DNA of 64,000 nt from a bacterium (GTDB taxonomy: Bacteria > Patescibacteriota > Minisyncoccia > UBA6257 > 2-01-FULL-56-20). Numbering within the stretch: the stretch's first letter is position 1; each line of letters opens with the position of its first letter. Of this stretch, positions 14,652-48,547 are shown piece by piece. Location of the stretch: positions 37,236 through 101,235 of the forward strand of contig DAICZW010000001.1 in assembly GCA_027310965.1 (NCBI GenBank). Direction: 5' to 3'. The position numbers and the translations under genes are program-made. The notes beneath the pieces are model-generated. The model did not search any database. It was given only the letters and a program-made list of their open reading frames with translations, and was not told the DNA's origin.

Positions 14652-14724
14652 GCGTGCATAGCTCAGTGGTTAGAGCGCTCCGTTCACATCGGAGAGGTCC
14701 CTGGTTCGATTCCAGGTGCGCGCA
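14652..14724 (+). tRNA. tRNA-Val (anticodon CAC); CCA not encoded
   Basis: Acceptor GCGTGCA/TGCGCGC (one G-U pair); D arm GCTC-AGTGGTTA-GAGC; anticodon stem CTCCG/CGGAG with loop TTCACAT; T arm CCTGG-TTCGATT-CCAGG. Confidence 0.85.
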
Positions 14725-27695: not shown

Positions 27696-28451
27696 ATGTC
27701 TCCCCATATTTCCATCCGCGCCGAAGAGATTTTCAGTATAGCCGGATTTCCGGTCACGAACGCGCTGTTGCTTTCCGCGCTTGTTTTTATTATTTTTTGC
27801 GTTGCCGCGGTCGTGATCCGGCGGCGGCTTTCGTTGATACCGAATACTCTTCAAAGCATCGCCGAACTGATAATGGAAGGCGCTTTAGACATCGTGGATT
27901 CGGTACTGCTTGACCGTCGCAAGTCGGAAAAATATCTCCCGCTCGTGCTTACGATATTCCTTTTCGTGCTGTTTTCGAACTGGCTCGGCCTTTTGCCCGG
28001 CGTAGGATCGCTCATCGTTACGCGCGCCGGAGAAACCGTGCCGCTTTTCCGGTCGCCCGCAGCCGACCTCAATTTTACGATTGCGCTTGCGCTGATCACG
28101 GTCATTTTCGCGAACGTCATGGGCATCCTGACGATCGGCCTGCGGTCGCGCCTGTCGGTATTTTTCAATTTCAAAAGTCCGATCAAGTTTTTCGTCGGTA
28201 TCCTTGAACTCATCTCGGAATGTGCTAAAATTATCTCGCTCTCGTTCAGGCTGTTCGGCAATATTTTCGCGGGCGAAGTGCTTCTGACGATCATGGCGTT
28301 TCTCGTGCCGTATATCGCGCCGATGCCGTTCATATTCCTGGAGGTATTCGTCGGTTTCATCCAGGCATTCATCTTCGGGATGCTCACGCTTGTTTTCGTC
28401 AGTATGGCGATTGTCGACGAACACGGAGAAGAAACGCGCCGGCATGCGTGA
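27696..28451 (+). CDS. atpB: F0F1 ATP synthase subunit a
   Basis: LSFRLFGNIFAGEVLL with the conserved Arg. Confidence 0.9.
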   Translation: MSPHISIRAEEIFSIAGFPVTNALLLSALVFIIFCVAAVVIRRRLSLIPNTLQSIAELIMEGALDIVDSVLLDRRKSEKYLPLVLTIFLFVLFSNWLGLLPGVGSLIVTRAGETVPLFRSPAADLNFTIALALITVIFANVMGILTIGLRSRLSVFFNFKSPIKFFVGILELISECAKIISLSFRLFGNIFAGEVLLTIMAFLVPYIAPMPFIFLEVFVGFIQAFIFGMLTLVFVSMAIVDEHGEETRRHA

Positions 28452-28730
<279 letters not shown>

Positions 28731-28854
28731 AAAATCCGCGCAACCATTTTTTCGTCATGCGCGACTCCGGTCGGGAGTTCGCGTTTTCTAAAAGAGAAGA
28801 CGGGAAGCGCGGGTCGTCCGCTTTCGCGGACGATAACAGGAAAAATTCATCATC

Positions 28855-29349
28855 ATGCAAGAAATGTTCAGCCAATTGGGGATAGATTGGCGCCTGCTTA
28901 TAAGCCAGGCGGTGGATTTTTTCGTGCTGCTTTTCGTTTTATGGCTGCTTTTATACAAGCCGCTTCTGAAGCTGTTGCGCGACCGGCGGCAGAAGATCGA
29001 GGAAGGGATTGTAAAAGCGAAAATGGCCGACGTGCGGCTTTCGGAAGCGAACGAAACAAGCAAGGAAAAAATAAAAGAAGCCGAGGCGCAGGCGCTCGGT
29101 ATTTTGCGGAAGACGGAGAATGACGCGAAAGTCCTCGAAGCGAAACTTCTCGCGAAAGCGAAAGAAAAGGAGGCGGCGGCGTTGAAAGACATGGATGCCG
29201 TGCTTCGCGTCAAGGAAGATGCATCGCGGCGGGAGGTTTTGCGCGGCGCGCAATCGCTCGTGAAAGAATCGCTCGTGAAAATGGTCGAGCTTGATCCGTC
29301 GGCAATCGACGATGCCTTGATTGCAAGAGCGGTGAAAGAAGTGCAATAA
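28855..29349 (+). CDS. atpF: F0F1 ATP synthase subunit b
   Basis: One N-terminal TM helix followed by a long charged coiled coil. Confidence 0.85.
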   Translation: MQEMFSQLGIDWRLLISQAVDFFVLLFVLWLLLYKPLLKLLRDRRQKIEEGIVKAKMADVRLSEANETSKEKIKEAEAQALGILRKTENDAKVLEAKLLAKAKEKEAAALKDMDAVLRVKEDASRREVLRGAQSLVKESLVKMVELDPSAIDDALIARAVKEVQ

Positions 29350-29440
29350 AAACATTTTTTGTCGTCCCCGCGGAGGCGGGGATCCGCGCTTTAAGAAATT
29401 AAAATTGGAAGCACAGGTTTCCGCCTTCGCCGGAATGACA
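29350..29440. repeat. REP-like palindromic element in the atpF-atpH spacer
   Basis: TTGTCGTCCCCGCGGAGGCGGGGATCCGCGCTTTAAG ... GCCTTCGCCGGAATGACAGAGGG. Confidence 0.6.
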
Positions 29441-29478
29441 GAGGGAGCGGATTTTCATTTTGAACGAACCATTATAGT

Positions 29479-29856
29479 ATGAAATATCCCGTATTATTTT
29501 ACGCAAAAGCGCTTGCCATGGCGGTTGCCGAGGCGGGGAAAAGCGACGCCGTCGCGAAAAATTTTCTTGCATTGGTGCGCAGGAACGGAGACGGACGATA
29601 CCTGCCGAAGATCGTGCGGGAAAGCGAACGCCTGATGCGCAAACAGCACGGCGTGCGGGAGATAACAGTGGCGTCGGCGCGCGGACTCAAACAGCCGCCG
29701 CGGGCATTGCTCAAAAATTTTGCAAAACCTGAAGATGAAGTTTATGGTGTCATCATGCCGGAGCTTGTCGCGGGAGTGAAGATTATGGTGGACGGCGAGG
29801 CGCAATTCGACGGATCGCTGAAAGGGAAAATAGACAGGATGTTCAAAAATATATAA
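29479..29856 (+). CDS. atpH: F0F1 ATP synthase subunit delta (short, 125 aa)
   Basis: Position in the operon and an OSCP-like C-terminal region. The N-terminal domain is shortened. Confidence 0.6.
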   Translation: MKYPVLFYAKALAMAVAEAGKSDAVAKNFLALVRRNGDGRYLPKIVRESERLMRKQHGVREITVASARGLKQPPRALLKNFAKPEDEVYGVIMPELVAGVKIMVDGEAQFDGSLKGKIDRMFKNI

Positions 29857-29879
29857 GCTAAGAAACGATGCCATTCTCA

Positions 29880-29995
29880 TGGTGTCGTCCTCGCCCCTCG
29901 AAAACTCGGGAGGAACTCCGGCGGGGATTCACACTTTAAGAAATAAAGACTGAAAGCATGGGTCGTCCGCCTTCGCGGACGATGACAGAAGGGAT
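29880..29995. repeat. REP-like palindromic element in the atpH-atpA spacer
   Basis: GTGTCGTCCTCGCCCCTCG...GGGTCGTCCGCCTTCGCGGACGATGACAGAAGGG. Confidence 0.6.
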
Positions 29996-30016
29996 AGTTG
30001 ATGAAATATTAAAATT

Positions 30017-31540
30017 ATGAGTTACGAAATCATAGAAAAACTGAAAAAAGAGATAGAGGGTTTCAAGGACGATCCGAAGTGGGAGGAATTCGGGCGCGTG
30101 ATCGAGGTTGGCGACGGCATCGTGAAGATCGTCGGTTTGCGGAACGCCGTGAGTCAGGAGATTTTAAAAATACAAACGCCGCGCGGCGAGCGTACGGCGC
30201 TGGCGCTGAATCTTGAAGAAGAATCGATCGGCGCGCTTGTACTCGACGATTTTCTTGCGGTCGAGGTCGGCAATGAAGTAAAACGTACCGGCGATGTCTT
30301 GTCCATTCCGGTCGGCGAGGAACTTATCGGCCGCGTCGTTGATCCGCTGGGAAATCCTTTGGACGGCAAAGGGCCGATTTTCACGAAAACAAAACCGCAG
30401 TTCAATCCGCTTGAAGCGCGCGCGCCGTCGGTTCTGGAGCGTGAATCGGTCACGACGCCGCTGCATACGGGGCTGAAGGCGATCGATGCCATCATTCCCA
30501 TCGGCCGCGGACAGCGCGAACTTATCATCGGCGACCGGCAGGTCGGGAAAACGGCGATCGCGATCGATGCTATCATCAACCAGGCGCAGGAAACCGGAAA
30601 AAAGAAGCCGGTCTGCATTTATGTCGCCATCGGCCAGAAGGAATCCAAGGTCGTGAAGACCGCGGAGACCCTGAAAAAATTCGGCGCGTTCGAATACAGT
30701 ATTATCGTTTCGGCGCCGGCATCGTCGCCCGCGGCAATGTGGTATCTCGCGCCGTATGCGGGCTGCGCGATAGGGGAATATTTCCGCGATAAAGGGCAGG
30801 ACGCGCTGATTGTTTACGACGACCTTTCGAAACATGCGTGGGCGTACCGGCAGATCTCGCTGCTTCTGCGCCGGCCGCCGGGCCGCGAAGCGTATCCGGG
30901 CGATATTTTTTATCTCCATTCCCGTTTATTGGAACGCGCCGCGAGACTTTCAAAAGAAAAAGGCGGCGGGTCGCTGACGGCATTGCCGATCGTGGAGACC
31001 CAGCTCGGCGACGTGACGGCGTACGTTCCGACGAACATCATTTCCATAACCGACGGGCAGATTTATCTCGAATCGGATCTTTTCAACCAGGGATTGCGGC
31101 CAGCGCTGAATGTCGGCATTTCCGTTTCACGCGTCGGTTCGGCCGCGCAGACGAAGGCGATGAAAAAAGTCGCCGGAAAATTGCGGCTCTCGCTCGCGCA
31201 GTTCCGCGAATTGCAGGCATTCGTGCAGTTCGCGACGGATGTGGATGATGCGACGAAGAAAAAGATCCTCCAGGGGCAGAAGATCAACGAGATTCTGAAG
31301 CAGGAAGACCTTGCGCCGTTGCCGTTCGAGAAACAGGTGTGCGTTTTTTACGCGGTGCTCAATGGTTATTTCGAGCATATCGCCGTGGAAAACATAAAAG
31401 AGACCGAAAACCGCTTACTCGAATACCTCGGAGAGTTTCACGAAGCCGATGTTTTGAAGCCGATCCGCGAGACCGGCGAATTCACGGAACAAGTCGAAAC
31501 CAAATTAAAAGAAGTGATAGGAAAATTCTTGGGAAAGTAA
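30017..31540 (+). CDS. atpA: F0F1 ATP synthase subunit alpha
   Basis: [19 protein letters not shown]-loop and [29 protein letters not shown]. Confidence 0.95.
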
Positions 31541-31544
31541 CCAT

Positions 31545-31690
31545 TCTGTCGTCTTTGCGGAGGCGAGGATCCATGCTTTAGGCGTAGAAAACGGAAGGCA
31601 GAAAGTAGGAAGTAAGAAGGAAGTATGGATCCTCGACCAGAGCATGCTCTTGACCTAATCGAGGGTCGAGAACGGCGAAGGAGAGAAATT
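31545..31690. repeat. REP-like palindromic element pair in the atpA-atpG spacer
   Basis: CTGTCGTCTTTGCGGAGGCGAGGATCCATGCTTTAGG ... GGATCCTCGACCAGAGC. Confidence 0.6.
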
Positions 31691-31748
31691 TCCCTCATCG
31701 CTAAAGACTTCACGCCACTTTTCATTGTCAACTTTTGATTATTATCCA

Positions 31749-32684
31749 ATGGAATCTCTCCAAAATCTCAAGCGGCGCCTGAAGGGGGCGCAGAATATCG
31801 GGACGATCACGAAAGCGATGGAGCTTGTCGAGGTTACGAAAATGCGCAAAAGCCAGGAATACGCGCTCAATTCGCGTCCGTATTCGTATACCGCGCTCGG
31901 CATTTTGGGGATTCTTTCCATGCAGGTATATTCGCCACTGCCGAAACTTTTACGCGGGCGTCCGGTCAGGAAGACAGCGTTCATGCTTATCGCTTCGGAT
32001 AAGGGTCTTGCCGGATCGTTCAACAGCGCGGTCATCCGCAAATTTGAAAGTTTCATCCGCGCGCACGCTATCGACGTGTACGAAAAAAAATATTCCTTTA
32101 TCGCCGTCGGCCAGAAGGCGCGCGCCTATTGCGAACGCAGGAATCTTGCTCTTGCGCAGTCGTTCCGCCACATGGGCGATGCTTCAAAAATGGAAGAAGT
32201 GGAACCGATCGCCGATTTTTTGATCAAGGGCTACCTGCGGGAGGATTTCGACGAAGTAATCTTGTTTTCAACGGGTTTCGTGAGCGCTTTGCGTCAGGAT
32301 CCCATCATGCGCCAGCTCTTTCCGGTCACGTTCGCGAAAATAAAAGAAAGTATCGAGGAAACCGTTCCGCGGGCGGGGCGTTATTCGCACTATATCGATA
32401 TCGAATCCCTCGCGGGGCGGCAGAACGGGGACTATCTTATCGAGCCGTCCGCGAACGAAGTCATGGAAGAGCTTGCTCCCAAGCTTTTAAAAATACAACT
32501 GTACCATCTTATACTCGAGGCGAACGCGTCGGAACATTCGGCGCGGCGCGTGGCGATGAAGAACGCTTCGGAGAACGCCGAAGACCTTTCGGAAAAACTG
32601 AACGTCGTATATAATAAATCCCGCCAAGCGGCGATCACGAACGCGATTATCGAAGTGACGTCGGGCGCGGAAGCGGCGGCATAA
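31749..32684 (+). CDS. atpG: F0F1 ATP synthase subunit gamma
   Basis: MESLQNLKRRLKGAQNIGTITKAMELVEVTKMRK N-terminus. The start was moved from the ORF-track 31725 to the homologous Met. Confidence 0.9.
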   Translation: MESLQNLKRRLKGAQNIGTITKAMELVEVTKMRKSQEYALNSRPYSYTALGILGILSMQVYSPLPKLLRGRPVRKTAFMLIASDKGLAGSFNSAVIRKFESFIRAHAIDVYEKKYSFIAVGQKARAYCERRNLALAQSFRHMGDASKMEEVEPIADFLIKGYLREDFDEVILFSTGFVSALRQDPIMRQLFPVTFAKIKESIEETVPRAGRYSHYIDIESLAGRQNGDYLIEPSANEVMEELAPKLLKIQLYHLILEANASEHSARRVAMKNASENAEDLSEKLNVVYNKSRQAAITNAIIEVTSGAEAAA

Positions 32685-34199
<1,515 letters not shown>

Positions 34200-34202
34200 T
34201 TC

Positions 34203-34345
34203 CTGCATTCTCTGTCGTCCTCGCCCTATGGAGTGGCGGCTTCGCCTACTCCATAGGGCGAGGATCTACGCTTGAAACGTATAATACAAAAAGCAGAATG
34301 GAGAAAGAGAAGATGGAAGCATGGATCCTCGACCGGGGCGAGGAC
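34203..34345. repeat. REP-like palindromic element pair in the atpD-atpC spacer
   Basis: TCTGTCGTCCTCGCCCTATGGAGTGGCGGCTTCGCCTACTCCATAGGGCGAGGATC ... GGATCCTCGACCGGGGCGAGGACGACGG. Confidence 0.65.
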
Positions 34346-34439
34346 GACGGAAAAAGAATTTTAATTTTTAATCGCTAATAACTTTTCACTTTTCACTATT
34401 AACTTCTTCGCGCTTTTCACTAATAACTTTTCACTTCTC

Positions 34440-34688
34440 ATGACTCTCGGCGTTTATTCATTGGAAAAAGTCCTCTATCGCGGCGAGGCGGTTTCGGTGA
34501 ATTGCGCGACCGCGATGGGGGAAATCACGATCCTCGACCATCACCAGCAAATGATTTCCATTTTAAAAAAAGGCGTGATGAAAATAGTTGACAATAATGG
34601 TAAAGAGCATTATATTAATGTCAGCTCTGGTTTCCTGGAAGTGGGTTCCGGGAACGAAATTAAAATTTTAATAGAAGAGGTATTGTAA
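34440..34688 (+). CDS. atpC: F0F1 ATP synthase subunit epsilon (N-terminal beta-sandwich domain only, 82 aa)
   Basis: SLEKVLYRGEAVSVNCATAMGEITILDHHQQMISILKKGVMKI. The C-terminal helical hairpin is absent. Confidence 0.8.
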   Translation: MTLGVYSLEKVLYRGEAVSVNCATAMGEITILDHHQQMISILKKGVMKIVDNNGKEHYINVSSGFLEVGSGNEIKILIEEVL

Positions 34689-34698
34689 GGAGGGCACC

Positions 34699-35283
34699 GT
34701 GAAGAAAGAATATGAAGGCCGTTTAAAATTGTCGATTGAAGACCGCAATCTAGTAAGGAAACTTCGAATGGACGGTGTTTTGGATGATGCAAAAGGACAT
34801 TTTCTCGACCAGAATAATGGAATTATCCTGGTAACGTGCTCCGACGGGGATCAATTCTTCGATATTTTTGAACACCAGGCCCAGATGCAGGCGGGCCAAC
34901 AGCCTGCCGATCCGCGCATCCATACTTTTGGATGGCATGGCGGGGCACTCGCCTGTGCGCCCTGCTCGCCGATAAACGAGAGAAAAAAAGCCGATCTGGT
35001 TTTCCTCGACCAGATCAAAGCCGCTCGTAAAATGAAAAACATCGACATGGTGGCGCTTTATACGCACGCACCCTGCGGTGCGGCAAGCGGGAACGGTGTG
35101 AATCTCGTAAAGGCCTTTGCCCTGCAAGCCGGAGCAAAGGTAAAAATAAAAACCTTGAACAGGGGCATCAAGGTAGCTTGTTTTTTCCATGTTGATTACG
35201 GGAATGGCGTAAAGAGAACGTATTTTTTTTCGCGCAGAAAGTGGGATGCATGGGCGCGCGAGAACGCGAAGGAAGAGCGATAA
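34699..35283 (+). CDS. Cys/His-rich hypothetical protein translationally coupled to atpC; weak beta-carbonic-anhydrase-like motif pair (CSDGD ... HAPCG)
   Basis: Starts 11 nt after the atpC stop behind a GGAGGG RBS. Motifs VTCSDGD and YTHAPCGAASG resemble the beta-CA CxDxR/HxxCG zinc site, but the Arg is replaced and the spacing is longer. Confidence 0.45.
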   Translation: MKKEYEGRLKLSIEDRNLVRKLRMDGVLDDAKGHFLDQNNGIILVTCSDGDQFFDIFEHQAQMQAGQQPADPRIHTFGWHGGALACAPCSPINERKKADLVFLDQIKAARKMKNIDMVALYTHAPCGAASGNGVNLVKAFALQAGAKVKIKTLNRGIKVACFFHVDYGNGVKRTYFFSRRKWDAWARENAKEER

Positions 35284-35577
35284 CGGCTGTTATCGTCGCA
35301 GAGGTATGAAGTGATGCTTGATGCTATCTAAGATAATAATTTCGTCATTTTCGGGCCGCACATTTTCCGTGCGGCCCTTTTTATTTTTATTTTCGCGCCG
35401 CTGTCGAAAATAAGCAGGATTTTTGCCGTTTCCCCTCGCGGAGGAGGATCCGCACTTCCGGTCTTTTCCTTTGAATTTTCAAATCGCGGATATTCAGTAA
35501 GGCCGATGATGGCGGGAATGGAAATATGGATTTATGTTTGCGTGAAGACGACGGAACGGAAACCGGACGACGCCGGA

Positions 35578-37155
35578 TTACAAATCGTTGCCCGTATACG
35601 AAAGATTGAAGCTCTTGTTGATGAGGGGAAAATCGGGAACCATATTGCCCTGGCCCGCATAACCGAGGATGGTCCAGTTCAAAAAAGAAGGATCGCGGAC
35701 ATCCACGCCGCTTATTTCGCCGCGCGGGCCGGTCGTTATGAAATAGACGATATCGCCGCGCCATCCTTCAACGATGCCGACCGCAGTAGCGTCTTTTTTG
35801 AGATTGATTTTATCGATTGCCGCCGCGGCAGTCCCGTCGGGAATTTTTTTCAAAGCTTCCGTGATAAGACGGTGGGATGCGTACGCTTCTTCAATGCGGA
35901 CATGGAAACGCGCGTACACGTCGCCGCTTTGATAGAGGGGAATTTTCGGTATAAGCCGGTCATAGGCGGCATATGGATAATCGATCCGCGCGTCCTTGTT
36001 GATGCCGACGGCTTTTCCCGCGACGCCGATAACGCCGTGGTTTTTCGCCTCATCGTACGGCGTCACGCCGGTTTCTTTCAGGCGGTTGATAAGCGAAGAA
36101 CTTTGCTCCGCGACCGCAATCACTTCCGAAAAATCTTTTATGATAGCGTCAAGTTCGCCGATGAGTCGCTGTTTCGTTCCCATTGCGATGTCTTTGGTAA
36201 CGCCGCCGATCGTATTGACGCCTCTCAAAAAACGGCTTCCGGTCGTCCGTTCGTTGATCTGCATGATCATTTCCCGCAGCCGCGCCCCGTGCGCTCCGCC
36301 GAAATTGAATCCGGTATCAAGCATGATGGCGCCGATGTCGCCGAAATGATTCGCCAACCGTTCCAGTTCGGCATAGACCGTCCTCAAATAGCGCGCCCGT
36401 TCAGGGACGTCGATGCCCGCCAATCGTTCGATGGCCTGCGAGAACGCGAGCGAATGGCTGAACGAGCTGTCTCCGGAAATTTTTTCCGACAAGCGGAGTT
36501 TTCCCTCAAGCGGGAGAATCCCGAATAATTTTACGCTGCCTTTATGGGTATATCCGAGCCGCGGTTCGAGCAGGACGATTTCTTCTCCCGCGACGCTGAA
36601 CCGGAAATGCCCCGGTTCGATGATACCGGCATGGATAGGCCCTACCGAAATCTCATAGATGCCTTCTCCCGCGACTTTTTGGAAATCGTATCGTTCGCGC
36701 GCGATCGCCGGTCTTGTTTGCCAGTTGAAATCATTGCGCAAAGGAAAAACGCCGCGCGGCCAATTTTCATGCAGGATCATGGCTTCTTTTTTCGGATGTC
36801 CCGCGGGATCCAGTCCGAAAAAAGTTTTTATTTTTCGTTCGTAGTTCCACGCTTCGTGGATGAACGGGGAGACCGACGGGAACTCATCCGCATTTTTTAC
36901 GCATATGAACGGAACAAGGAAAATATTTTCTTTCGGCGCGCCGAAGACATACCAGATTTTAAAATAACCGCTTTCATTTCTTTCGTCCGTCGCGGTGATG
37001 ATTTTGAGCGACAATGCTTCGTCCGCGTACATCTCTTTTATCGTCGCGACGATGGTATCGATAGGCACTTCAAAAGTAGCCGTATTTTCGGACGGGTCAA
37101 AATGGAAATTTTCGGGAAGATATTTTTTCAGTTTTTGGGGGATGGCGTGCGTCAT
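35578..37155 (-). CDS. Fused NuoC/NuoD-like (HycE/HyfG-like) large subunit of an Ehr-type complex; NiFe-binding cysteines absent
   Basis: N-terminal 30-kDa-subunit-like domain, then GPIHAGIIEPGHFRF...EPRLGYTHKGSVK (NuoD-like HRGxEK region, with no RxCGxC). C-terminus ...SFNLSYTGNDL lacks DPCxxC. Confidence 0.8.
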   Translation of the reverse strand: MTHAIPQKLKKYLPENFHFDPSENTATFEVPIDTIVATIKEMYADEALSLKIITATDERNESGYFKIWYVFGAPKENIFLVPFICVKNADEFPSVSPFIHEAWNYERKIKTFFGLDPAGHPKKEAMILHENWPRGVFPLRNDFNWQTRPAIARERYDFQKVAGEGIYEISVGPIHAGIIEPGHFRFSVAGEEIVLLEPRLGYTHKGSVKLFGILPLEGKLRLSEKISGDSSFSHSLAFSQAIERLAGIDVPERARYLRTVYAELERLANHFGDIGAIMLDTGFNFGGAHGARLREMIMQINERTTGSRFLRGVNTIGGVTKDIAMGTKQRLIGELDAIIKDFSEVIAVAEQSSSLINRLKETGVTPYDEAKNHGVIGVAGKAVGINKDARIDYPYAAYDRLIPKIPLYQSGDVYARFHVRIEEAYASHRLITEALKKIPDGTAAAAIDKINLKKDATAVGIVEGWRGDIVYFITTGPRGEISGVDVRDPSFLNWTILGYAGQGNMVPDFPLINKSFNLSYTGNDL

Positions 37156-37163
37156 AGCGGTTA

Positions 37164-38603
37164 TTAATAGGCTGCGGCGGCATTATGCAGCAAGGTGATA
37201 AGGAACGGCGGCAGAGAGAAACTAAAGCAGATGAAAATAATGACGAGCGCGAGCGGCGGAATGAGGATCCAATAATTCCGTTCTCCGGAACCGGAACCGA
37301 CGTCATCCGGCCGTTCGCCGAACATCATCGATGACGTATGTTTCAGGAATCCGGCGAAGACCAGCGCGAACGCAAGGATTGCGACGGCGGTAATCACGGG
37401 ATGCATGCCAATGCCGCCGGCCAAAATGGAAAACTCGGTCAAAAATATGCCGGACGGCGGCACGCCGGTGATGGCCAGGAATCCGACGATGAAAAGTATG
37501 CCCGTTATCGGCAGCGCCGCAAGCGCCCCCCGTACCTGTTTTATTTTGGTCGTGCTGTATTTCAAAAAGATATTTCCGGAGGAAAGGAACAGCGCCGGTT
37601 TCACGAGGGCGTGATAGACCATATGAAGAACGGCGGCAAGCGCGGCCAGTCCGCCGAATCCGAAGCCGAGCGCGACAATTCCCATATTTTCGATGCTGGA
37701 ATATGCCAGAAGCCGTTTGTAATTTTTTTGCGTCAAGATGGTGAATGCGGCCAAAATAATCGAAGCAAGCCCGAACCAGATCAGAAGCGTCTGGGAAAAG
37801 TGTACGCCGAGGACGCTGTCCGTGACTGCCTTGAAGCGGATGATCGCGAGGAATGCCACGTTGAGCAGGACGCCCGAAAGCAAAGCGCTGATCGGAACCG
37901 GCGCTTTGCTGTGCGCGTCGGGAAGCCATGTGTGCATGGGCACCAGGCCGGCTTTCGTGCCGTATCCTATAAGGACGAATATAAAAGCGATTTTCGCGAC
38001 GGCGGGATTAAGATGCCCGGCATTCGCAAAAAGCATTCCCCAGCTGACGAGTCCGGTTCCGTGGATGGACGTGAAGTAGAGTAGCGTTCCGAAAAAACCG
38101 AGCAACAAACCGACCGAATTGACCATCAGATATTTCCATGCCGCTTCCATCGCCGACGGCTTATTGTAAAAACTAATCAGGAATGCCGTCGAGAGCGTCG
38201 TTGCCTCTATCGAAATCCACATGATGATCGGATTGACCGTGGCGACGGCAAAGAACATCGCCAAAAGGAACAGGTTGAACAAAATAAAATATTGTTTGAC
38301 TCTGCGGAAGCCGATGATATTTTTTGCGGTCTCTTCCCGGAGATATCCTTTGGAATAGAACGCCGTGGCGACTCCGACCGCGGCGACGGCGAGCATGATG
38401 ATCGCGCCCAGCGCGTCGACGGAAAAAAGCGGCAAAAAACTGTACGTTCCGAAAGAAGCGACCTCTATCGCGATTGCGACCGCCGCCCCGAACGAGCAAA
38501 GCGAAGCGGCGATCGAAACGGTTTCGATTGTTTTTCTTTGTCTGCTTGCGATGCCCGTAAGCGCCGCAACGAACAATGACGCGATGATAATGACGATGGC
38601 CAT
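37164..38603 (-). CDS. NuoN/NuoM/HyfF-like proton-translocating antiporter-type membrane subunit
   Basis: 479 aa, ~14 TM segments, PF00361-like core (WLPDAHSKAPVPISALL...). Confidence 0.8.
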   Translation of the reverse strand: MAIVIIIASLFVAALTGIASRQRKTIETVSIAASLCSFGAAVAIAIEVASFGTYSFLPLFSVDALGAIIMLAVAAVGVATAFYSKGYLREETAKNIIGFRRVKQYFILFNLFLLAMFFAVATVNPIIMWISIEATTLSTAFLISFYNKPSAMEAAWKYLMVNSVGLLLGFFGTLLYFTSIHGTGLVSWGMLFANAGHLNPAVAKIAFIFVLIGYGTKAGLVPMHTWLPDAHSKAPVPISALLSGVLLNVAFLAIIRFKAVTDSVLGVHFSQTLLIWFGLASIILAAFTILTQKNYKRLLAYSSIENMGIVALGFGFGGLAALAAVLHMVYHALVKPALFLSSGNIFLKYSTTKIKQVRGALAALPITGILFIVGFLAITGVPPSGIFLTEFSILAGGIGMHPVITAVAILAFALVFAGFLKHTSSMMFGERPDDVGSGSGERNYWILIPPLALVIIFICFSFSLPPFLITLLHNAAAAY

Positions 38604-38607
38604 GTGA

Positions 38608-39258
38608 TTATTCTTCTTTTAAATGTTTCATCACGGTGGTTTCGAACGAGCCGAAATGGCGGTAGATCATCGACGCGAATATGGATGCGATGGTCACCCA
38701 GATGACAAGATTGAACATAATGCCCGCCTGAAGCGCCGGCGATTGTTCCAATCCCGAGAGAACGGAAAACGCCACAATCCCGTTTTCAAGAGAAAGAATG
38801 CCGACCATCTGGGATAAGATGCCCTTGCGGTTGATGATAAGCAGGAACGCTATCAGCATGACGGCGATGGCGAGTGTTATCATCGGCGCATGGTCCGGCA
38901 TGATGGCGACCAGCGGCGCGAATATCCGCGAATGCGCGAGCGCCGCCAGAAGCGCAACGGCCAAAAGGCTGAGCGGCACGTTCAAATAAGTGCTGGCGGA
39001 GAAGGTGAGGCGGTGCTTTTTTATCAATCGCGTGAAGAACAAAGGAGCGAAGACGACTTTGACGGCAAAGGTCAGAAGCGCGATCATGGCAAGCGACACG
39101 GCGTGCGTTTCGAAAAAAGAACCGAATAGGATCAGGGTTATTGCCGCGGATTGTATGGCGTAAAGCGCGATGACCATTGAGTTTTTTCTCGTCACGTGCA
39201 AAAAAACAACCGTGAGAAAAACGATGATTACGAAGAATGATAAAAAGTTATATGCCAT
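38608..39258 (-). CDS. HyfE-like small membrane subunit (216 aa)
   Basis: 7-TM protein the same length as E. coli HyfE, in the position between the NuoH-like and NuoN-like genes of hyf-type operons. Confidence 0.55.
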   Translation of the reverse strand: MAYNFLSFFVIIVFLTVVFLHVTRKNSMVIALYAIQSAAITLILFGSFFETHAVSLAMIALLTFAVKVVFAPLFFTRLIKKHRLTFSASTYLNVPLSLLAVALLAALAHSRIFAPLVAIMPDHAPMITLAIAVMLIAFLLIINRKGILSQMVGILSLENGIVAFSVLSGLEQSPALQAGIMFNLVIWVTIASIFASMIYRHFGSFETTVMKHLKEE

Positions 39259-39260
39259 GA

Positions 39261-40193
39261 TTACATTATTACCATGCCGATTGCGATAATGCCCAGGATA
39301 AACGAAGTAAGAAGGAGGTCGGGAAGCCGGAAAAATCTGAACTTGGCGATGCTCGATTCAAGCGCGGCTATTGCGGCGCAAAAAACAAGGATTTTCAGCG
39401 CAAAAATTCCCAGTCCGAAAGCTATGGCGCCCATGCTTGGCGAAATTGCGATGCCCCACGGGAAGAACAGGCTCGATCCGAGCGCGATGAAGATCGCGAG
39501 CTTGTTGGCCGACGCCCATTCCATCAGCGCGAGCTTCTTCCCTGAATATTCAAGGATCATCGCTTCGTGGATCATCGTGAGTTCGAGATGGGTTGCCGGA
39601 TTATCGAAAGGAAACCGCGCCGTTTCCGCAAGAAGGACAATCAGGAATCCCGTGAAAGCGATGAATATCGGAAGGAAAAAAGAATGTCCGTTTAAGGATA
39701 TCGCCGCGGCGATGGAAAATAAGTTCGTTGTTTTGGCGATGACGGCGAGCGCGAACAGCGAAAAGATCAATCCGCCTTCCGCGAGCGCCGCAACGGTCAT
39801 CTCGCGGCTCGAACCGAAGCCGCCGAAAGAGCTTCCGGCATCCATGCCTGCGAGCGCCAGAAAGAACGTGCCGATTGCGAGGAGGTAGACGAGCGCCAGA
39901 AGATCGCCGGTGAACTTATTGGACAGGAACGCGGCGAATGTCGGGATGCCCGCCGCGGCGGCGAGCGTTACCGCAAAAACGATATACGGCGCGGCGCGGA
40001 ACAGCCACGATGCGTCGGTGCTGATAATTTCGTCCTTGTGAAGAAGTTTCCAGATATCTTTATACGGCTGGAAAATTCCCGCTCCTGCGCGGTTTTGAAG
40101 CACCGCTTTCATTTTCCTGATGATGCCGAGCATGAGCGGCGCGATCATCGGTAAAAGAAATAATTGCAATGTCCAAAGCAGGATGGTGATCAT
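39261..40193 (-). CDS. NuoH/HycD/HyfC-like membrane subunit
   Basis: 310 aa, 8 TM segments, conserved QNRAGAGIFQPYKD and loop regions of the NuoH family. Confidence 0.8.
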   Translation of the reverse strand: MITILLWTLQLFLLPMIAPLMLGIIRKMKAVLQNRAGAGIFQPYKDIWKLLHKDEIISTDASWLFRAAPYIVFAVTLAAAAGIPTFAAFLSNKFTGDLLALVYLLAIGTFFLALAGMDAGSSFGGFGSSREMTVAALAEGGLIFSLFALAVIAKTTNLFSIAAAISLNGHSFFLPIFIAFTGFLIVLLAETARFPFDNPATHLELTMIHEAMILEYSGKKLALMEWASANKLAIFIALGSSLFFPWGIAISPSMGAIAFGLGIFALKILVFCAAIAALESSIAKFRFFRLPDLLLTSFILGIIAIGMVIM

Positions 40194-40196
40194 GGC

Positions 40197-42251
40197 TTAA
40201 AATAAAGATGCCGATAATAACGCCGCGAGCAGGACGATCAGCATGTAGAGAATATACGCATTGATGTTGCCGCTTTGTATCTTTTTTACGTATCCGGATA
40301 TTTTCATGAAACCGAACCGGATCGGATCGTAGAATCGCACCCGGTAAAAATCGGCAAGATGCATGGTCGCCGTTCTTGATTTCGGAACATAGCGCATCGA
40401 GGCGTCGTTGTATTCTATGTCGGTCTGGAAACTCGGTTTCAATATTCCCTGGAAGATCATAATAATGGATCGCGAGAACCCGGTCGCCGTTATTTCCATG
40501 CGGGGCGTGAGATCGGTGCCGCAATCCCACGTGGCGCCGGTTTTGATATTTTGTTTCCGGTTGACGAGATATTTGATCGCGACTACGGAAAGGGCGAGTG
40601 CCAGAATGATGATGGCGAACAGCGCCGGCGCGGAAACCGAAGCAAAGCCGTTCACCGCGATTGTCTGGGCGGGATGAACCGCAACAATCGATGCCGCGTC
40701 GCGCAAGCCGGAAATATTTTTTACGACGGCATTCAGGATGGAAACGATGGAACCGGAAAACAGGCCGAATACGAGCGACAGGAGCGCGAGTCCCGCCATG
40801 CCAAACTGCAAAGAAAATCCCGATTCCTTCGCGCATGCGGCTTCATGGCTTCGGGGACGGGCGAGGAATGTCGCGCCGAACGCTTTTACGAAACAGGCGA
40901 GCGCAAGGCCGCTTGTAAGGGCGAGCGTTCCGGCCGACAGGATGAAGATCCAGACGACCAGGGAAGAGAACGAATAAATACCCGCGAAGAGCGACTGGAA
41001 TGTCAGCCACTCGCTGAAAAAACCGTTAAAAGGAGGGAGCGCGGCGATGGCCATCGATCCTATGAGAAAGAAAAAGGCGGTTTCGGGCATCCGTTTCATG
41101 AGCCCGCCGTATTCTTCGATATTTCTTGTGCGCGTTCCCTCGATAACGGAGCCGGCGCTCAAAAATAACAATGATTTAAAGACGGCGTGGTTCAAAGTGT
41201 GGAAAAGCGCGGCGATCATGCCCAATGCCGCGAGTGCCGGCATCCCGAGCGACGAGAAAACAAGCGCGCTGCCGATGCCGAGCAGGATGATGCCGATATT
41301 TTCGATGCTGTGGTATGCCAGAAGGCGTTTGATGTCGTGTTCGGTCAGCGCATAAAGCACGCCCAGCAAGGCGGATACGGATCCGATGACGAGTATCGCG
41401 ACGCCCCACCATAACGGCGCCGTCGTAAAAACATCGAAAAATAATTTGATCATCATGAATATCCCCGTTTTGATCATGACGCCGGACATCAATGCGGATA
41501 CGTGCGAAGGGGCGGCGGGATGGGCGTCGGGAAGCCAGATGTGCAAAGGGATGATGCCCGCTTTCATGCCGAAACCGATGAATGAAAAAATAAAGATCAT
41601 GTTTTTCGCGAACATGGGTATGGCGGCGCTGTTCGCTTTGATAACGCCGAAGTCGAACGATCCGGTGTACCGGTATAAAAGAAGGAATGCGAGCATGATG
41701 AAAGCGGTGCCGATGTGCGTCATGATGAAATAGAGGGATCCGGCTTTGATATTTTTCGGGTCGTTCCGGTCGTAGATCACCAAAAAATACGATGCGAGCG
41801 ACATGATTTCCCAGACGATAAGAAACAAGATTGCGTTGGATGCCGTAACCACCATCAGCATGCCGGCGATGAAGAAATGGTAAAAAAATCCCAGGGTGCC
41901 GATGGTGTATTTTTTATAATAATGTTTGACGTATCCTATGCCGTAGATCGAAGCGAAAAGCGCCACCAATGAAATGATAAAAATAAAAAACGCGGACAGC
42001 GCGCCGACGGCGAACGATATCGATAAAAAAGGAGAGAGCGCCGCGGCGATATGGAATGATAATGTCGTTCCGGAAATGAATATGGAAAGCGCGAAAATGA
42101 TGCCCCAGAGCGACCCGCCGACGGCGAACGCGCTGCTCCAAAAATTTGCAAGCGCGTCATTTTTCCTGAACGCCAATGCGCCCAAGGCTCCCGCGGCGAA
42201 GAATGAAAGCAGCAATAAAAAACCGCCTTGCGATGCAATGGATGCGATCAT
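40197..42251 (-). CDS. NuoL/HyfB/MnhA-like large antiporter-type membrane subunit
   Basis: 684 aa, ~17 TM segments, WLPDAHPAAPSHVSALMSG core. Confidence 0.85.
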   Translation of the reverse strand: MIASIASQGGFLLLLSFFAAGALGALAFRKNDALANFWSSAFAVGGSLWGIIFALSIFISGTTLSFHIAAALSPFLSISFAVGALSAFFIFIISLVALFASIYGIGYVKHYYKKYTIGTLGFFYHFFIAGMLMVVTASNAILFLIVWEIMSLASYFLVIYDRNDPKNIKAGSLYFIMTHIGTAFIMLAFLLLYRYTGSFDFGVIKANSAAIPMFAKNMIFIFSFIGFGMKAGIIPLHIWLPDAHPAAPSHVSALMSGVMIKTGIFMMIKLFFDVFTTAPLWWGVAILVIGSVSALLGVLYALTEHDIKRLLAYHSIENIGIILLGIGSALVFSSLGMPALAALGMIAALFHTLNHAVFKSLLFLSAGSVIEGTRTRNIEEYGGLMKRMPETAFFFLIGSMAIAALPPFNGFFSEWLTFQSLFAGIYSFSSLVVWIFILSAGTLALTSGLALACFVKAFGATFLARPRSHEAACAKESGFSLQFGMAGLALLSLVFGLFSGSIVSILNAVVKNISGLRDAASIVAVHPAQTIAVNGFASVSAPALFAIIILALALSVVAIKYLVNRKQNIKTGATWDCGTDLTPRMEITATGFSRSIIMIFQGILKPSFQTDIEYNDASMRYVPKSRTATMHLADFYRVRFYDPIRFGFMKISGYVKKIQSGNINAYILYMLIVLLAALLSASLF

Positions 42252-42829
42252 GATAGTGAGGCTGATTTTTTATGCTCGATATCGTTGAGGATCGCCAAAA
42301 GGTGGCGGAGGATGATTTTGGGGGAAGGAGGATCGCCCGGGATCTGATAATCGACGGGAATCACGTTATGCGCGCCGTCCAAAACCGCATATGATCCTCT
42401 ATAAATACCGCCGTCGATTGCGTCATCGCCGACCGCCACGACGATCTTCGGATCGGGCGTCGCCCGGTATGCGCGGACCAGCGCTTCGCGCATATTCCTT
42501 GTCACGGGGCCGGTCACCATAAGCATGTCGGCGTGTCTTGGTGAAGCGACAAAATGGATGCCGAAGCGTTCAATGTCGTAAAAAGCGTTCGAAAGCGCGA
42601 CCAGTTCCTGTTCGCAGGCGTTATCGGATCCGGCGTCGACCTGACGTATCGCGAGCGACCCGCGGAATAATTTCTTGACGCGGTCGCTTATTTTTCCTCC
42701 GAGAGCGGCGACCTCGTCTTTTTCCATAGCGCTGTCACGGAACGGGATGACGGGGCTTTTCGTCCGGAATATTTTTGTGAGTAGCCTCAACATGGATTGA
42801 ATGCGGATTGAATTATGATAATGCCGCAC
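42248..42829 (-). CDS. NuoB-like (hydrogenase small-subunit-like) protein with three of the four N2 [4Fe-4S] cysteine ligands replaced
   Basis: Aligns to NuoB across RFG...SPRHADMLMVTG...PDPKIVVAVG...VIPVDYQIPG. The Cys motifs become CCxxE>ACEQE, GTC>GPV, GAC>GDD and PGCPP>PGDPP. Confidence 0.8.
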   Translation of the reverse strand: MRHYHNSIRIQSMLRLLTKIFRTKSPVIPFRDSAMEKDEVAALGGKISDRVKKLFRGSLAIRQVDAGSDNACEQELVALSNAFYDIERFGIHFVASPRHADMLMVTGPVTRNMREALVRAYRATPDPKIVVAVGDDAIDGGIYRGSYAVLDGAHNVIPVDYQIPGDPPSPKIILRHLLAILNDIEHKKSASLS

Positions 42830-42869
42830 ATTATAATTTGCAAGAAAAAAATAACGATTTTTTTAAAGC

Positions 42870-43013: not shown

Positions 43014-43598
43014 TTAAACAACCTCGTTTTCTTTCAGTGTGAACCGATAGGGTTTTTCCGCCCATGTGCGGCCGGCGAAATTAACGCCGATTCTTTTTCG
43101 CGCGGCAATGGTCCGTTTTTTTATTTTTATTCCGCGATCTTCGAACCATAAGCCGGTTTTTTTGCAGGCGCGTTTTCCGTTTTGCGCATCGGCGATATGC
43201 AGGAATTTTGCAAGCCGCGCCGGACCATTGACAATAATTCCCTCGCCGGTTTTCGGGTCATTATATTTTCCGGCGCGCAAAAGCGCCGCCGCGGGATAAT
43301 CCGCGGGGCCGGTCACGATATTAACGAGCCAATGCATGCCGTATACGAAATAAATATAGAAATGTCCCGGTTCGCCGAACATTATTTCCGTCCGTTCCGT
43401 TCTGCCGCGGCTCGCGTGCGATGCCTTATCGCGCGGTCCGTCGTACGCTTCGACGTCGGTGATCATGAGCGCGATCCGTTTGCCGCGCCACGATCGCACG
43501 ATATATTTTCCGATAAGATCTTTCGCCGCGACAATCGTCGGCCGATTGAAGAATTTTTGCGGAAGTGTTTTCGCCATGAAATCCAATAGTATAATCAT
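43014..43598 (-). CDS. DNA-3-methyladenine glycosylase (Mpg/AAG family)
   Basis: VEAYDGPRDKASHASRGRTERTEIMFGEPGHFYIYFVYGMHWLVNIV. Alternative start at 43577 (MAKTLPQ...). Confidence 0.8.
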   Translation of the reverse strand: MIILLDFMAKTLPQKFFNRPTIVAAKDLIGKYIVRSWRGKRIALMITDVEAYDGPRDKASHASRGRTERTEIMFGEPGHFYIYFVYGMHWLVNIVTGPADYPAAALLRAGKYNDPKTGEGIIVNGPARLAKFLHIADAQNGKRACKKTGLWFEDRGIKIKKRTIAARKRIGVNFAGRTWAEKPYRFTLKENEVV

Positions 43599-43809
43599 TG
43601 AGAGTATATCCCAAGAGGAAATCTTTCGGTAGCGCGGTTATTTCGCGGAATGCCGCCGATTCCCTGAAACGCGACCCGCTTGATTTACCCCGAAAGAAAG
43701 GATAGAATTTTCGATAAAGATGCGTTGGTATTCATTTATAGAACCTGCTTTAAAAGTAAGACAGAGAGTTTGCTTAAAAAGTTATTTTTGAGACAGGTTC
43801 TCATCAATG

Positions 43810-43884
43810 CGGTCGTAGCTCAATTTGGTTAGAGCACCGCCCTGTCACGGCGGGGGTTGCCGGTTCAAGTCCGGTCGACCGCGC
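43810..43884 (+). tRNA. tRNA-Asp (anticodon GTC); CCA not encoded
   Basis: Acceptor GCGGTCG/CGACCGC; D arm GCTC...GAGC; anticodon stem CCGCC/GGCGG with loop CTGTCAC; T arm GCCGG-TTCAAGT-CCGGT; discriminator G. Confidence 0.85.
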
Positions 43885-44257: not shown

Positions 44258-44617
44258 TTATAAAATCATCGGTGATGAAAATACAAAAAGAATTCCCGAT
44301 ATGGCGCATTCAAGAAAATATAATAACGCAATGCCGGACGCAAAAAACAGGAACGAGCTGAAAAATCCGGCGCGTGCGGCGGACAGGGGATTTAAAAAAC
44401 GGCGATAGATGAAAAACGGGATAACGCCGATTGTGATATATGAAATCGCAAGCGTTATGATGGCCATAAGCATATCCGCCGCTGGAAATATCCTTATTAT
44501 TATTTCATAGCCCGCAAGACCGGGGCGCATGCTGCCGGAAAAGATCCACGGCGCAAGCGCGAATAAAATAATTCCCGTTAAAAACCCCGCGATGATGTCG
44601 GCGTAATTCCGTTTCAT
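44258..44617 (-). CDS. Small 4-TM membrane protein, hypothetical
   Basis: 119 aa, hydrophobic, overlaps the start of the upstream lipase gene stop by 4 nt. Confidence 0.5.
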   Translation of the reverse strand: MKRNYADIIAGFLTGIILFALAPWIFSGSMRPGLAGYEIIIRIFPAADMLMAIITLAISYITIGVIPFFIYRRFLNPLSAARAGFFSSFLFFASGIALLYFLECAISGILFVFSSPMIL

Positions 44618-47200: not shown

Positions 47201-48547
47201 TTGTTTCTCATAATCATGGAATCCCGTTATAATGAGTGCATGGAGGAAAACGATCAAAAAGAGAAGAAAGAGAAAGGACCGCGAAAGAGATGGGCCGCGC
47301 GGCTTTTTAGAATCCTCGGTCCGGGACTCATCACGGGCGCGGCGGACGATGATCCGTCGGGCATAGCGACGTATTCCCAGACCGGCGCGCAGTTCGGCTA
47401 CGGCCAGCTTTGGACGGCTCTTTTTTTGTATCCTTTGATGACGGCCGTGCAGGAGGCGTGCGCGCGGATTGGCGCGGTGACGAAAAAAGGCATCGCGTCG
47501 GTCGTAAAAGAGCATTACGGCCGGACAATTTTGTATTGCGCAGTTTTTCTCATCGTACTTGCGAACACGATCAATATCGGCGCGGATATCGGCGCGATGG
47601 CGGCGGCCGTGCGCCTCGTCGTGCCGATTCCCTTCGCGGTCGCCACGCTTTTTTTTGCGGCGCTGATGCTCACGCTCGAGATATTTATTTCATATAAAAA
47701 ATATGCCCGCATTTTGAAATGGCTTGCCGCGAGCATGCTGGTCTATCCCGCTACATTGCTTTTGATCGCCGCGCCGTGGGGCGCGATTCTTCGCGCCACG
47801 TTCCTGCCGCGCATCGAGCTGAATGCCGCTTTCTTTTTCGTCATTACCGGCGTCATAGGCACGACGATTTCGCCGTATATGTTTTTTTGGCAGGCGTCGG
47901 AAGAGGTGGAGGAAGAGGTCGAGCAGGGGATTGCGAAGCGGCATGCGGTTGACAAAGGTTTTATAAAAAATATGCGCATCGATAATGCGCTGGGAATGTT
48001 TCTTTCGCAGGCCGTCATGTGGTGCATCATCGTGGTTACGGGCACCGTCCTTCACCGGGGCGGCGTGACGAATATCGCGACGGCTGCCGATGCCGCAAAG
48101 GCGCTCGCGCCGCTTGTGCATACTTTTCCCGACGCCGGATTCCTTGCGGAGATCGTTTTTGCGATCGGCATCGTCGGGCTCGGCCTTCTTTCGGTGCCGG
48201 TGCTCGCCGGTTCCGCGGCGTACGCCGTTGCCGAGGCGTTCGATTGGCATGAAGGGCTTTACCGGAAATTGCGCAAAGCGCACGGGTTTTACGGCGTCAT
48301 CACGGTTGCGACGTTCGTCGGGCTTGCCATTAATTTTGTCGGCATCAATCCGATGAAAGCGCTTATCGTCGCCGCCGTTGTGAACGGCGTCGTTTCCGTC
48401 CCGCTTATTTTTCTCATTGCTTTTATTTCGTCGAACAAAAAAATCATGGGCGAACACGCGAGCGGCCGCCTTTCAAAAATATTCCTTTGGATTTCTTTTG
48501 TCGCGATTCTTATTGCGGCGATTGCAATGTTCGCGACGGTATTATAG
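47201..48547 (+). CDS. mntH: NRAMP-family divalent metal (Mn2+/Fe2+) transporter
   Basis: GPGLITGAADDDPSGIATYSQTGAQFGYGQLW (DPGN-type motif variant), 11-12 TM segments. Confidence 0.8.
   Translation: MFLIIMESRYNECMEENDQKEKKEKGPRKRWAARLFRILGPGLITGAADDDPSGIATYSQTGAQFGYGQLWTALFLYPLMTAVQEACARIGAVTKKGIASVVKEHYGRTILYCAVFLIVLANTINIGADIGAMAAAVRLVVPIPFAVATLFFAALMLTLEIFISYKKYARILKWLAASMLVYPATLLLIAAPWGAILRATFLPRIELNAAFFFVITGVIGTTISPYMFFWQASEEVEEEVEQGIAKRHAVDKGFIKNMRIDNALGMFLSQAVMWCIIVVTGTVLHRGGVTNIATAADAAKALAPLVHTFPDAGFLAEIVFAIGIVGLGLLSVPVLAGSAAYAVAEAFDWHEGLYRKLRKAHGFYGVITVATFVGLAINFVGINPMKALIVAAVVNGVVSVPLIFLIAFISSNKKIMGEHASGRLSKIFLWISFVAILIAAIAMFATVL

Follow-up and report, generated by a model that had tools for sequence, protein, structure and literature searches.

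What can a relative of respiratory complex I still do once the binding sites of its redox cofactors have gone? The question is raised by a six-gene operon on contig DAICZW010000001.1 (assembly GCA_027310965.1) of a patescibacterium from the GTDB lineage Minisyncoccia; UBA6257. The window, i.e., the whole stretch of 64,000 nucleotides that was analysed, covers positions 37,236 to 101,235 of this contig, and all coordinates below are positions in the window. An earlier note, made from the letters of the DNA, had described the region 35578-42829 as a complex-I-like or hydrogenase-like module of the Ehr (energy-converting hydrogenase related) type, with every cofactor ligand deleted, beside the ATP synthase operon. 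The operon encodes a six-subunit complex that is intact, selectively maintained and built on the architecture of Hyf (formate hydrogenlyase-2). Judged by its sequence, the peripheral arm has no canonical cofactor site and offers no path for electrons, so that the complex would not be a redox-driven pump. It is best read, with a probability of roughly 0.45, as a Mrp-like secondary cation/proton translocator that would do without redox chemistry and work together with the ATPase.

The operon and its cofactor positions

The region 35578-42829 consists of six successive minus-strand open reading frames (ORFs), each with a Pfam match above the gathering score, and the subunit types first assigned to them hold for all six. 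The first gene encodes EhrS (42248..42793), a NuoB/HycG-like small subunit of 181 aa (PF01058, Oxidored_q6, at 2.5e-25; alignment to HycG and MbhJ). It is followed by EhrB (40197..42251; 684 aa), a HyfB/HycC/NuoL-like antiporter-like subunit (PF00361, Proton_antipo_M; 7z0s_C at 1.6e-86), the HycD/NuoH-like EhrC (39261..40193; 310 aa; PF00146, NADHdh; 7z0s_D at 1e-40) and EhrE (38608..39258; 216 aa), which is HyfE-like over its full length (NF008556 at 2.6e-14) and NuoK-like in its C-terminal half (PF00420, Oxidored_q2). The series is completed by EhrF (37164..38603; 479 aa), a HyfF/NuoN-like antiporter-like subunit (PF00361, Proton_antipo_M; NF005044 HyfF at 1.4e-122), and EhrG (35578..37155; 525 aa), a fusion of NuoC with a NuoD/HycE-like large subunit (PF00329 + PF00346, Complex1_30kDa + Complex1_49kDa; 7z0s_E at 2.3e-64). 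Overlaps of 1-9 nt had been announced for all six genes; only EhrS and EhrB overlap, by 4 nt, and the remaining junctions are gaps of 3, 2, 4 and 8 nt. The real start of EhrS is ATG 42793, which gives the same 181 aa as P0001 in the database and the gene called in locus L161; the 193-aa ORF from GTG 42829 is too long. Just 5' of this ATG lies a promoter-like site found by consensus scan only (TTGCAA-17-TATCAT, 42815..42843, minus strand).

The best NCBIfam matches are the hydrogenase-4 families HyfB, HyfE and HyfF. Every one of them stays under its curated cut-off (HyfB, NF005086, 652.6 bits against 667; HyfF, 410 bits), and the operon proteins are therefore divergent. Among proteins of known structure, the top matches are HycG, HycC, HycD and HycE of Escherichia coli formate hydrogenlyase (FHL; 7Z0S), with the membrane-bound hydrogenase (MBH) of Pyrococcus next. 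The six genes contain no frameshift or stop, and their lengths are those of their homologues.

Alignment to the E. coli reference places the NiFe ligands of HycE (C241, C244, C531 and C534) at S227, S230, S519 and G522 of EhrG, in agreement with the initial claim that a NiFe site is missing. The L1 motif RxCGxCxxxH is replaced by KISGDSSFSHS (225-235), and not by RLGYTHKG as had been proposed, a stretch that aligns with RxxYxHRG; in the L2 region NLSYTG stands for DPCxxC, and the C-terminus reads SFNLSYTGNDL. The cluster ligands of HycG (C48, C51, C115 and C145) correspond in EhrS to D69, C72, D136 and D166 in the numbering of the 193-aa ORF, or D57, C60, D124 and D154 in the 181-aa protein. 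They fall in the three motifs ACEQE, GDD and PGDPP, which had been recognised correctly and which depart from the pattern of the complex I cluster N2 (CCxxE, GxC, PGCPP). A fourth substitution, GPV for GTC, has to be withdrawn, as VTGPVT aligns with FTGAVT of HycG and VAGTLT of PSST, both free of Cys. The deletion of every ligand is thus borne out at seven of eight positions and contradicted at the eighth by C72, the sole surviving ligand Cys, which is not conserved among homologues. There is a single Cys in EhrS and another in EhrG, and EhrS has no Fer4 domain. An ungapped HMMER alignment to 2fug_4 puts Ile and Gly of EhrG at the positions of His38 and Tyr87 (Thermus thermophilus Nqo4 numbering), the quinone-site residues of NuoD.

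No ORF of at least 40 aa in the window contains a CxxCxxCxxxC or CxxCxxC motif, and annotation and motif scan of its ORFs gave no NuoI/HycF-like or flavoprotein gene, as the earlier note had stated, and no NuoA, NuoI, NuoJ or NuoEFG module in the operon or elsewhere in the window. Hyp maturation genes and the endopeptidase were likewise not found in the window, and the soluble subunits have no P-loop, Rossmann or other nucleotide-binding motif. Relatives of the operon in the Candidate Phyla Radiation (CPR), referred to here as CPR-type, were scanned for ferredoxin motifs as well: 46 of 48 such operons have no ORF with CxxCxxCxxxC within 2.5 kb, and in the remaining two the motif occurs once, in a short ORF outside the operon (77 aa in one case, 95 aa in the other). 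As a positive control for the Fer4 scan, all six of six true hydrogenases were found to carry a 2x[4Fe-4S] domain fused to the small subunit. A ferredoxin gene hidden nearby or a fused Fer4 domain was considered and rejected, as no CPR-type small subunit has the motif. Also rejected was a new obligate metal site formed by the Asp/Cys replacements: in close homologues the four positions vary between D/T/S, C/A/E/V, D/G/A/E and D/N/S, and some of these proteins have no Cys, or a single acidic residue, at the four positions.

A cofactor-free branch of the Ehr family, judged from its sequences

Related loci were collected by scanning the large subunit against one genome per GTDB species and the NuoH-like subunit against JGI metagenomes; synteny was deduced from ORF calling and blastp, and the ligand positions were then tabulated. 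All sequences come from metagenome assemblies; the locus sets, whose ranking follows similarity, include some duplicates (L010/L109, L163/L164). More than 40 loci, taken from genomes and from metagenomes, have the intact operon in the order S-B-C-E-F-G. The operon is a member of the Ehr family and, within it, of a subclade almost confined to CPR/Patescibacteria assemblies; for a few CPR-type loci, binned as Firestonebacteria, Fibrobacteria, Thermoleophilia or Bdellovibrionales, mis-binning or gene transfer is possible.

Membership in Ehr is evident from the large subunit. A comparison of 112 Ehr sequences with hydrogenases singles out eight residues that differ from the latter and reach a conservation of at least 90% in Ehr; EhrG has all of them (K205, S227, D229, D280, P489, N517, S519 and G522). 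In a neighbour-joining tree of the large subunit the CPR-type sequences are monophyletic (bootstrap of only 29/50) and nested inside Ehr. Their neighbours in this distance tree, which has moderate support, are Ehr from Rokubacteria and Chloroflexi in which the small-subunit gene comes first and the cluster is retained; the loss of the cluster is therefore derived. The small subunit departs from the Ehr described so far: its four cluster Cys are complete in none of 33 CPR-type loci, compared to 85 of 86 other Ehr and hydrogenase loci, and none of the 120 closest database homologues of EhrS has the full set either. The commonest CPR-type ligand patterns are DCDD (14), TCDD (7), SEGD (3) and DCDN (3; n = 33), with a median of one Cys per small subunit and no Fer4 domain in any of the 33. 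The Ehr assignment of the operon is thus sound for the large subunit and has to be qualified for the small one.

Three grades can be distinguished among the sampled loci. True hydrogenases have the RICGxC and ELCYSC motifs and a small subunit with fused 2x[4Fe-4S] domain; a second grade, found in Nitrospirota, Verrucomicrobia, Acidobacteria, Rokubacteria, Firmicutes and Thaumarchaeota, has no NiFe Cys and keeps the small-subunit ligands; the CPR-type clade has neither the NiFe Cys nor a complete small-subunit cluster site. At the chosen thresholds, EhrG shows no fixed difference between CPR-type and cluster-bearing Ehr. A large subunit that is the same with and without the cluster hints that Ehr function may never have needed it.

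Part of this picture was known. A monophyletic group of CPR large subunits inside Ehr, without metal-binding Cys and "likely" unable to interact with H2, has been described (Jaffe 2020, PMC7304191), so that the novelty first attributed to the locus was overstated; ATP synthase does not come up in that paper, and nor do the small-subunit Fe-S ligands of Ehr. Papers citing the definition of the family give its function as unknown, and the family definitions quoted there do not include the four small-subunit Cys that are typical of the sampled Ehr. The CPR-specific loss of the cluster, the untouched membrane arm and the recurrent linkage to atp genes were not found in the searchable literature, which contained no report of small-subunit cluster loss or of an Ehr-atp linkage.

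Some CPR-type loci have features of their own. Directly 3' of the operon, L099 (15096-20915) and L008 (10505-15708) contain a second, more distant Hyf-like cluster that is cut by the ends of the loci. The large subunit of this cluster in L099 retains the NiFe L1 motif (RICGACTVSH) and looks like a true hydrogenase; cofactor-less and hydrogenase forms can therefore coexist in tandem. In the divergent, atp-linked locus L078 (6573-8171) the NuoH-like and HyfE-like subunits are apparently fused in one ORF of 532 aa. L163 (12-797) and L164 (6-797) have a gene for a heliorhodopsin (PF18761) at a distance of about 10 kb, 5' of the Ehr operon, and no ATP synthase nearby; the contig is 1.08 Mb long, and the NCBI label of its small subunit, P0102, is "Patescibacteria group bacterium".

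Could the operon be a decaying hydrogenase remnant without function, as the loss of cofactor ligands taken alone might suggest? A comparison of the window with locus L172 (about 80% amino-acid identity) put dN/dS at 0.105-0.124 in each of the six genes and at 0.185 in atpC; these values are approximate, with dS near 1. Identities between CPR lineages amount to 55-75% for the subunits, comparable to 65-68% for the ATP synthase beta subunit, the functional residues are invariant, and the six genes are all intact in more than 40 loci. All six genes are thus under purifying selection, as had been argued from the conserved core around the lost cysteines; pseudogenisation was rejected on the dN/dS values and the intact genes, and the remnant explanation, to which hardly any probability was given, is refuted.

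Membrane arm, ATP synthase and the proposed function

The ion-translocation residues of the membrane arm have been retained. Across 37-45 CPR-type sequences, E148, K230, H237, K261, H351, H355, K359 and E414 of EhrB and E158 of EhrE are invariant, and E133, K217, H224, H327, H331 and K335 of EhrF are conserved, with Glu or Lys at the position in transmembrane helix (TM) 12 that is E390 in the window. The residues typical of Mrp, namely Glu in TM5, Lys in TM7, Lys/His in TM8 and Lys/Glu in TM12, can be recognised as E148, K230, K261 and E414 in EhrB and as E133, K217 and E390 in EhrF, and nearly all of the sampled sequences have kept them. The coupling loop between TM5 and TM6 of EhrC is conserved as well (E190, R193, D197, H202, E204, E210 and E215). 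To go by these residues, the ion-translocating arm and its coupling loop are intact. Three charged positions are peculiar to the clade: residue 171 of EhrE is Glu in the window, acidic in the CPR-type clade only and Gly in 54 of 54 other Ehr; residue 233 of EhrF, in the WLPDAHSxAP motif, is Lys in CPR-type sequences and Glu in 72 of 91 others; and the TM12 residue of EhrF is Lys in 21 of 37 CPR-type sequences compared to Glu in 87 of 91 others. These changes may reflect an altered ion path.

The link to the H+-ATPase operon is both statistical and physical. The window contains a complete F1Fo ATP synthase operon on the plus strand (a, c, b, delta, alpha, gamma, beta, epsilon by Pfam; 27696..34688). 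Clustering of all ORFs flanking 40 CPR-type loci returned atp subunits as the only recurrent families, and in a tblastn search F-type alpha/beta genes flanked 8 of the 28 CPR-type loci that were informative, i.e., had enough flanking DNA, compared to none of 70 informative non-CPR Ehr or hydrogenase loci (Fisher p = 2e-5). The linkage is also seen at L172 and on the short contig L003. At six loci the Ehr operon stands, in the same orientation, 3' of atpD or atpC; for those with a detected atpC, the gaps extend from 9 nt (L093) and 132 nt (L086) up to about 1.1 kb (L013). In a saccharibacterial locus (L004) the six genes are inserted into the atp operon itself (a-c-b-delta-alpha-gamma-[EhrS-B-C-E-F-G]-beta-epsilon); 5 and 24 nt separate them from the flanking atp genes, which Pfam confirms. 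The association is therefore stronger than first claimed, although the distance had been misread: atpC lies 890 bp from EhrG, with another gene, orf194, in between, and the value of about 300 bp is the distance to orf194. Na+-binding c-rings are recognised by a Gln/Ser/Thr motif. This motif is absent from the c subunits of the window (AEAI) and of the linked loci, which by motif are of the H+ type, and a Na+-type c-ring was accordingly rejected as a clue to ion specificity.

An insertion between the gamma and beta genes, and Ehr genes directly 3' of atpC in several loci, might also be expected if the complex were an accessory of the ATP synthase, i.e., an attached module, a regulated return path for protons or an assembly factor. 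Such a role is very improbable: the majority of loci are not linked to atp genes, the complex is far bigger than known ATP synthase accessories, and the full antiporter-type charge network has been retained.

The gene between the two operons allows yet another proposal. orf194 (34699..35283, plus strand; 194 aa), a neighbour of uncertain membership, starts 10 nt 3' of atpC and converges on EhrG. It has no Pfam match up to E = 10 and no sequence similarity to the Pro_CA_2 neighbour of its homologue in L168; the relationship to beta-carbonic anhydrases is visible only by fold comparison, in a structure prediction whose fold is confident. The alignment of 43 sequences has invariant C47, D49, H123 and C126, which reproduce the zinc-site pattern Cys-x-Asp ... 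His-x-x-Cys of these enzymes. The usual beta-carbonic anhydrase has an Asp-Arg dyad; in orf194 the nearly invariant D51 stands where the Arg of the dyad is expected. The family has 44 members and no family name, and its lone source-labelled member is from Patescibacteria. Homologues often close an atp operon, following atpC, as in L004, L168 and L172, and one comes just after the Ehr operon in L093; in L168, where the homologue comes after a PF20393 (Pro_CA_2) gene, there is no Ehr operon, and in L167 and L169 neither atp nor Ehr genes are near.

By analogy with DabAB or the cyanobacterial NDH-1MS (CupA), the complex and orf194 might form an energy-coupled CO2/bicarbonate system. In NDH-1MS, a complex-I-type membrane module powers vectorial CO2 hydration. 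The predicted fold with its invariant Cys/Asp/His/Cys would fit such a role, as would the gene's position: in the window and in L172 it separates atpC from the Ehr operon, in L093 it comes right behind Ehr, and in L004 it follows the atpC of the atp-Ehr fusion operon. These are, however, the only three other Ehr loci with a homologue (L172 by closest-homologue look-up only), three loci have orf194 homologues and no Ehr operon, the 44 homologues compare with more than 8000 NuoB-family matches listed for EhrS, cluster-bearing ones included, and D51 replaces the dyad Arg. The association is too sparse for a mechanism, and the proposal is highly unlikely.

The preferred reading, a Mrp-like translocator, assigns a role to both arms. 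The cofactor-free NuoB/NuoCD cap would act as a structural or gating module above the NuoH-like subunit. In these hosts, which ferment and lack a respiratory chain, the ATPase would hydrolyse ATP and export H+, and the Ehr module would exchange re-entering H+ for Na+ or K+, or catalyse the reverse reaction; a secondary ion gradient and pH homeostasis would be the outcome. ATP synthase occurs in nearly all Patescibacteria despite the lack of a respiratory chain, which has been called surprising (PMC11665869), and a reverse ATPase that powers antiporters is one of the reasons proposed for its retention (PMC11665869; PMC10633639). It is conceivable in this context that CPR bacteria recruited a redox-dead relative of complex I as ion-gradient partner of the H+-F1Fo ATPase, one that interconverts H+ and Na+/K+ gradients or turns an external cation gradient into ATP; this fuller scenario is tentative, with more room for doubt than for confidence.

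Several observations weigh against the translocator. A plain antiporter does not need a peripheral arm, yet the conservation of this arm equals that of the membrane arm, and the polar pocket of EhrG probably has some specific role; it is because arm and pocket would be superfluous in a plain antiporter that the probability was set no higher than 0.45. Homologues of MrpB, MrpE, MrpF and MrpG are absent from the six ORFs by Pfam and NCBIfam. In the window the atp and Ehr operons are convergent, and the 294-bp gap separating orf194 from EhrG contains a G+C-rich hairpin with a T-run (35353..35377, no strand assigned; 9 bp stem with 8 GC pairs), a likely terminator, so that the two operons are not co-transcribed. 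About 70% of the informative CPR-type loci have the Ehr operon away from atp genes, and transposon sequencing in one Saccharibacterium found the ATP synthase dispensable (PMC10633639).

The pocket also underlies the remaining explanation, in which the complex is an energy-coupled pump or a catalyst driven by the proton-motive force, with chemistry on a hypothetical substrate or non-metal cofactor, or a ligand-gated step, taking place in the Ehr pocket. This would apply to the whole family, and the clusters of other Ehr would be merely structural. Of the 525 positions of EhrG, 98 have a conservation of at least 90% in Ehr as a whole, including the polar pocket at the former NiFe site: K205, S227, D229, S/T230, D280, N517 and S519 reach this level in the 112 Ehr sequences, drawn from CPR, Nitrospirota, Acidobacteria, Firmicutes and Thaumarchaeota. 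EhrG further retains the proton-relay Glu of hydrogenases (E180, in EPGHF), the coupling loop of EhrC is kept, EhrS and EhrG are under strong purifying selection, and no CPR-specific change is fixed in EhrG relative to cluster-bearing Ehr. Against this, the soluble subunits yielded neither a candidate substrate nor a motif for binding a cofactor or nucleotide, atp genes aside the flanks have no recurrent partner gene, and a redox reaction would have to proceed without any electron wire. A structural or proton-transfer role would explain the conserved pocket equally well, and pocket chemistry is regarded as unlikely.

How chemistry at the NuoB/NuoD/NuoH interface of complex I and membrane-bound hydrogenases powers remote antiporter-like subunits is a matter of debate. 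Whichever function applies, a naturally cofactor-free complex that keeps the NuoB/NuoD/NuoH-type interface and the channel residues under strong selection is a minimal system for asking what the peripheral arm does beyond electron carriage in complex I and hydrogenases. It suggests that the whole Ehr family may not need its remaining Fe-S cluster. The complex is also a candidate for the missing partner of the CPR ATP synthase, being wired to atp genes in about 30% of the informative CPR loci that carry Ehr. If the translocator reading is true, it would help to explain why ATP synthase is retained without an electron-transport chain, and the coupling machinery of complex I would be able to run without redox chemistry.

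Surroundings of the operon and comparison with known systems

The annotated neighbours in the window are housekeeping genes. A methylpurine-DNA glycosylase gene (43014-43598) and a tRNA gene (43809-43883) lie between EhrS and a gene whose product, 813 aa long, has an LCAT-like alpha/beta-hydrolase domain (44614-47055, minus strand), which is adjoined, 5' of the Ehr operon, by a Nramp metal transporter gene (47201-48547, plus strand). Elsewhere in the window are a ribosomal protein L10 leader (12801-12930, plus strand; Rfam, 50.9 bits) and tRNA genes at 2713-2783 (minus strand) and 14652-14724 (plus strand). The cumulative GC skew climbs nearly monotonically from 1 to 64000, which places the window inside a single replichore, with neither an origin nor a terminus in it.

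Among known systems, the Ehr operons of Geobacter sulfurreducens (GSU0739-45), Nitrospira, Thaumarchaeota and Margulisbacteria have the same set of subunits as the window operon. Ehr large subunits share [RKS]-[IV]-S-G-D-[ST] and, at the C-terminus, S-F-N-L-S-Y-[ST/A]-G-x-D-[LR], without the NiFe Cys. Non-CPR Ehr differ in keeping the four small-subunit Cys (85/86 together with hydrogenases) and in part a fused 2x[4Fe-4S] domain, neither of which is present in the CPR-type, and in their lack of linkage to the atp operon (0/70). Among the Ehr sampled, a gene order that begins with the small subunit is restricted to the CPR-type and its sister group from Rokubacteria and Chloroflexi.

The closest characterised relative is E. 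coli hydrogenase-4/FHL-2 (HyfABCDEFGHI), with identities of 39% to HyfB, 40% to HyfF, 36% to HyfC, 43% to HyfI and 31% to HyfG and with the order B-C-E-F-G in common. Compared to Hyf and FHL-1 (HycBCDEFG), the window operon is devoid of the NiFe site, the Fe-S clusters, HyfA, the HyfH/HycF ferredoxins, HyfD and formate dehydrogenase. MBH (6CFW) and MBS/Mbx (6U8Y) of Pyrococcus furiosus are intermediates between Mrp, hydrogenase and complex I, and MbhJ, MbhL, MbhH and MbhM are the second-best PDB matches of the window subunits. MBS also lacks a NiFe site; both MBH and MBS have kept three [4Fe-4S] clusters and a ferredoxin-driven reaction, whereas the window complex has no cluster site.

DabAB and NDH-1MS (CupA) are precedents for a non-redox CO2 hydration coupled to complex-I-type membrane subunits; homology of orf194 to DabA or CupA is not detectable, the gene accompanies few Ehr loci, and the link to these systems is weak. 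Mrp antiporters (CPA3; PDB 7QRU, 6Z16, 7D3U) share with the window complex two PF00361 subunits with a Glu/Lys/His chain, a NuoK/MrpC-like subunit and the absence of a redox input. Unlike Mrp, the window complex has a NuoH-like subunit and a NuoB/NuoCD arm, and its likeness to Mrp would lie in the proposed principle and not in the family.

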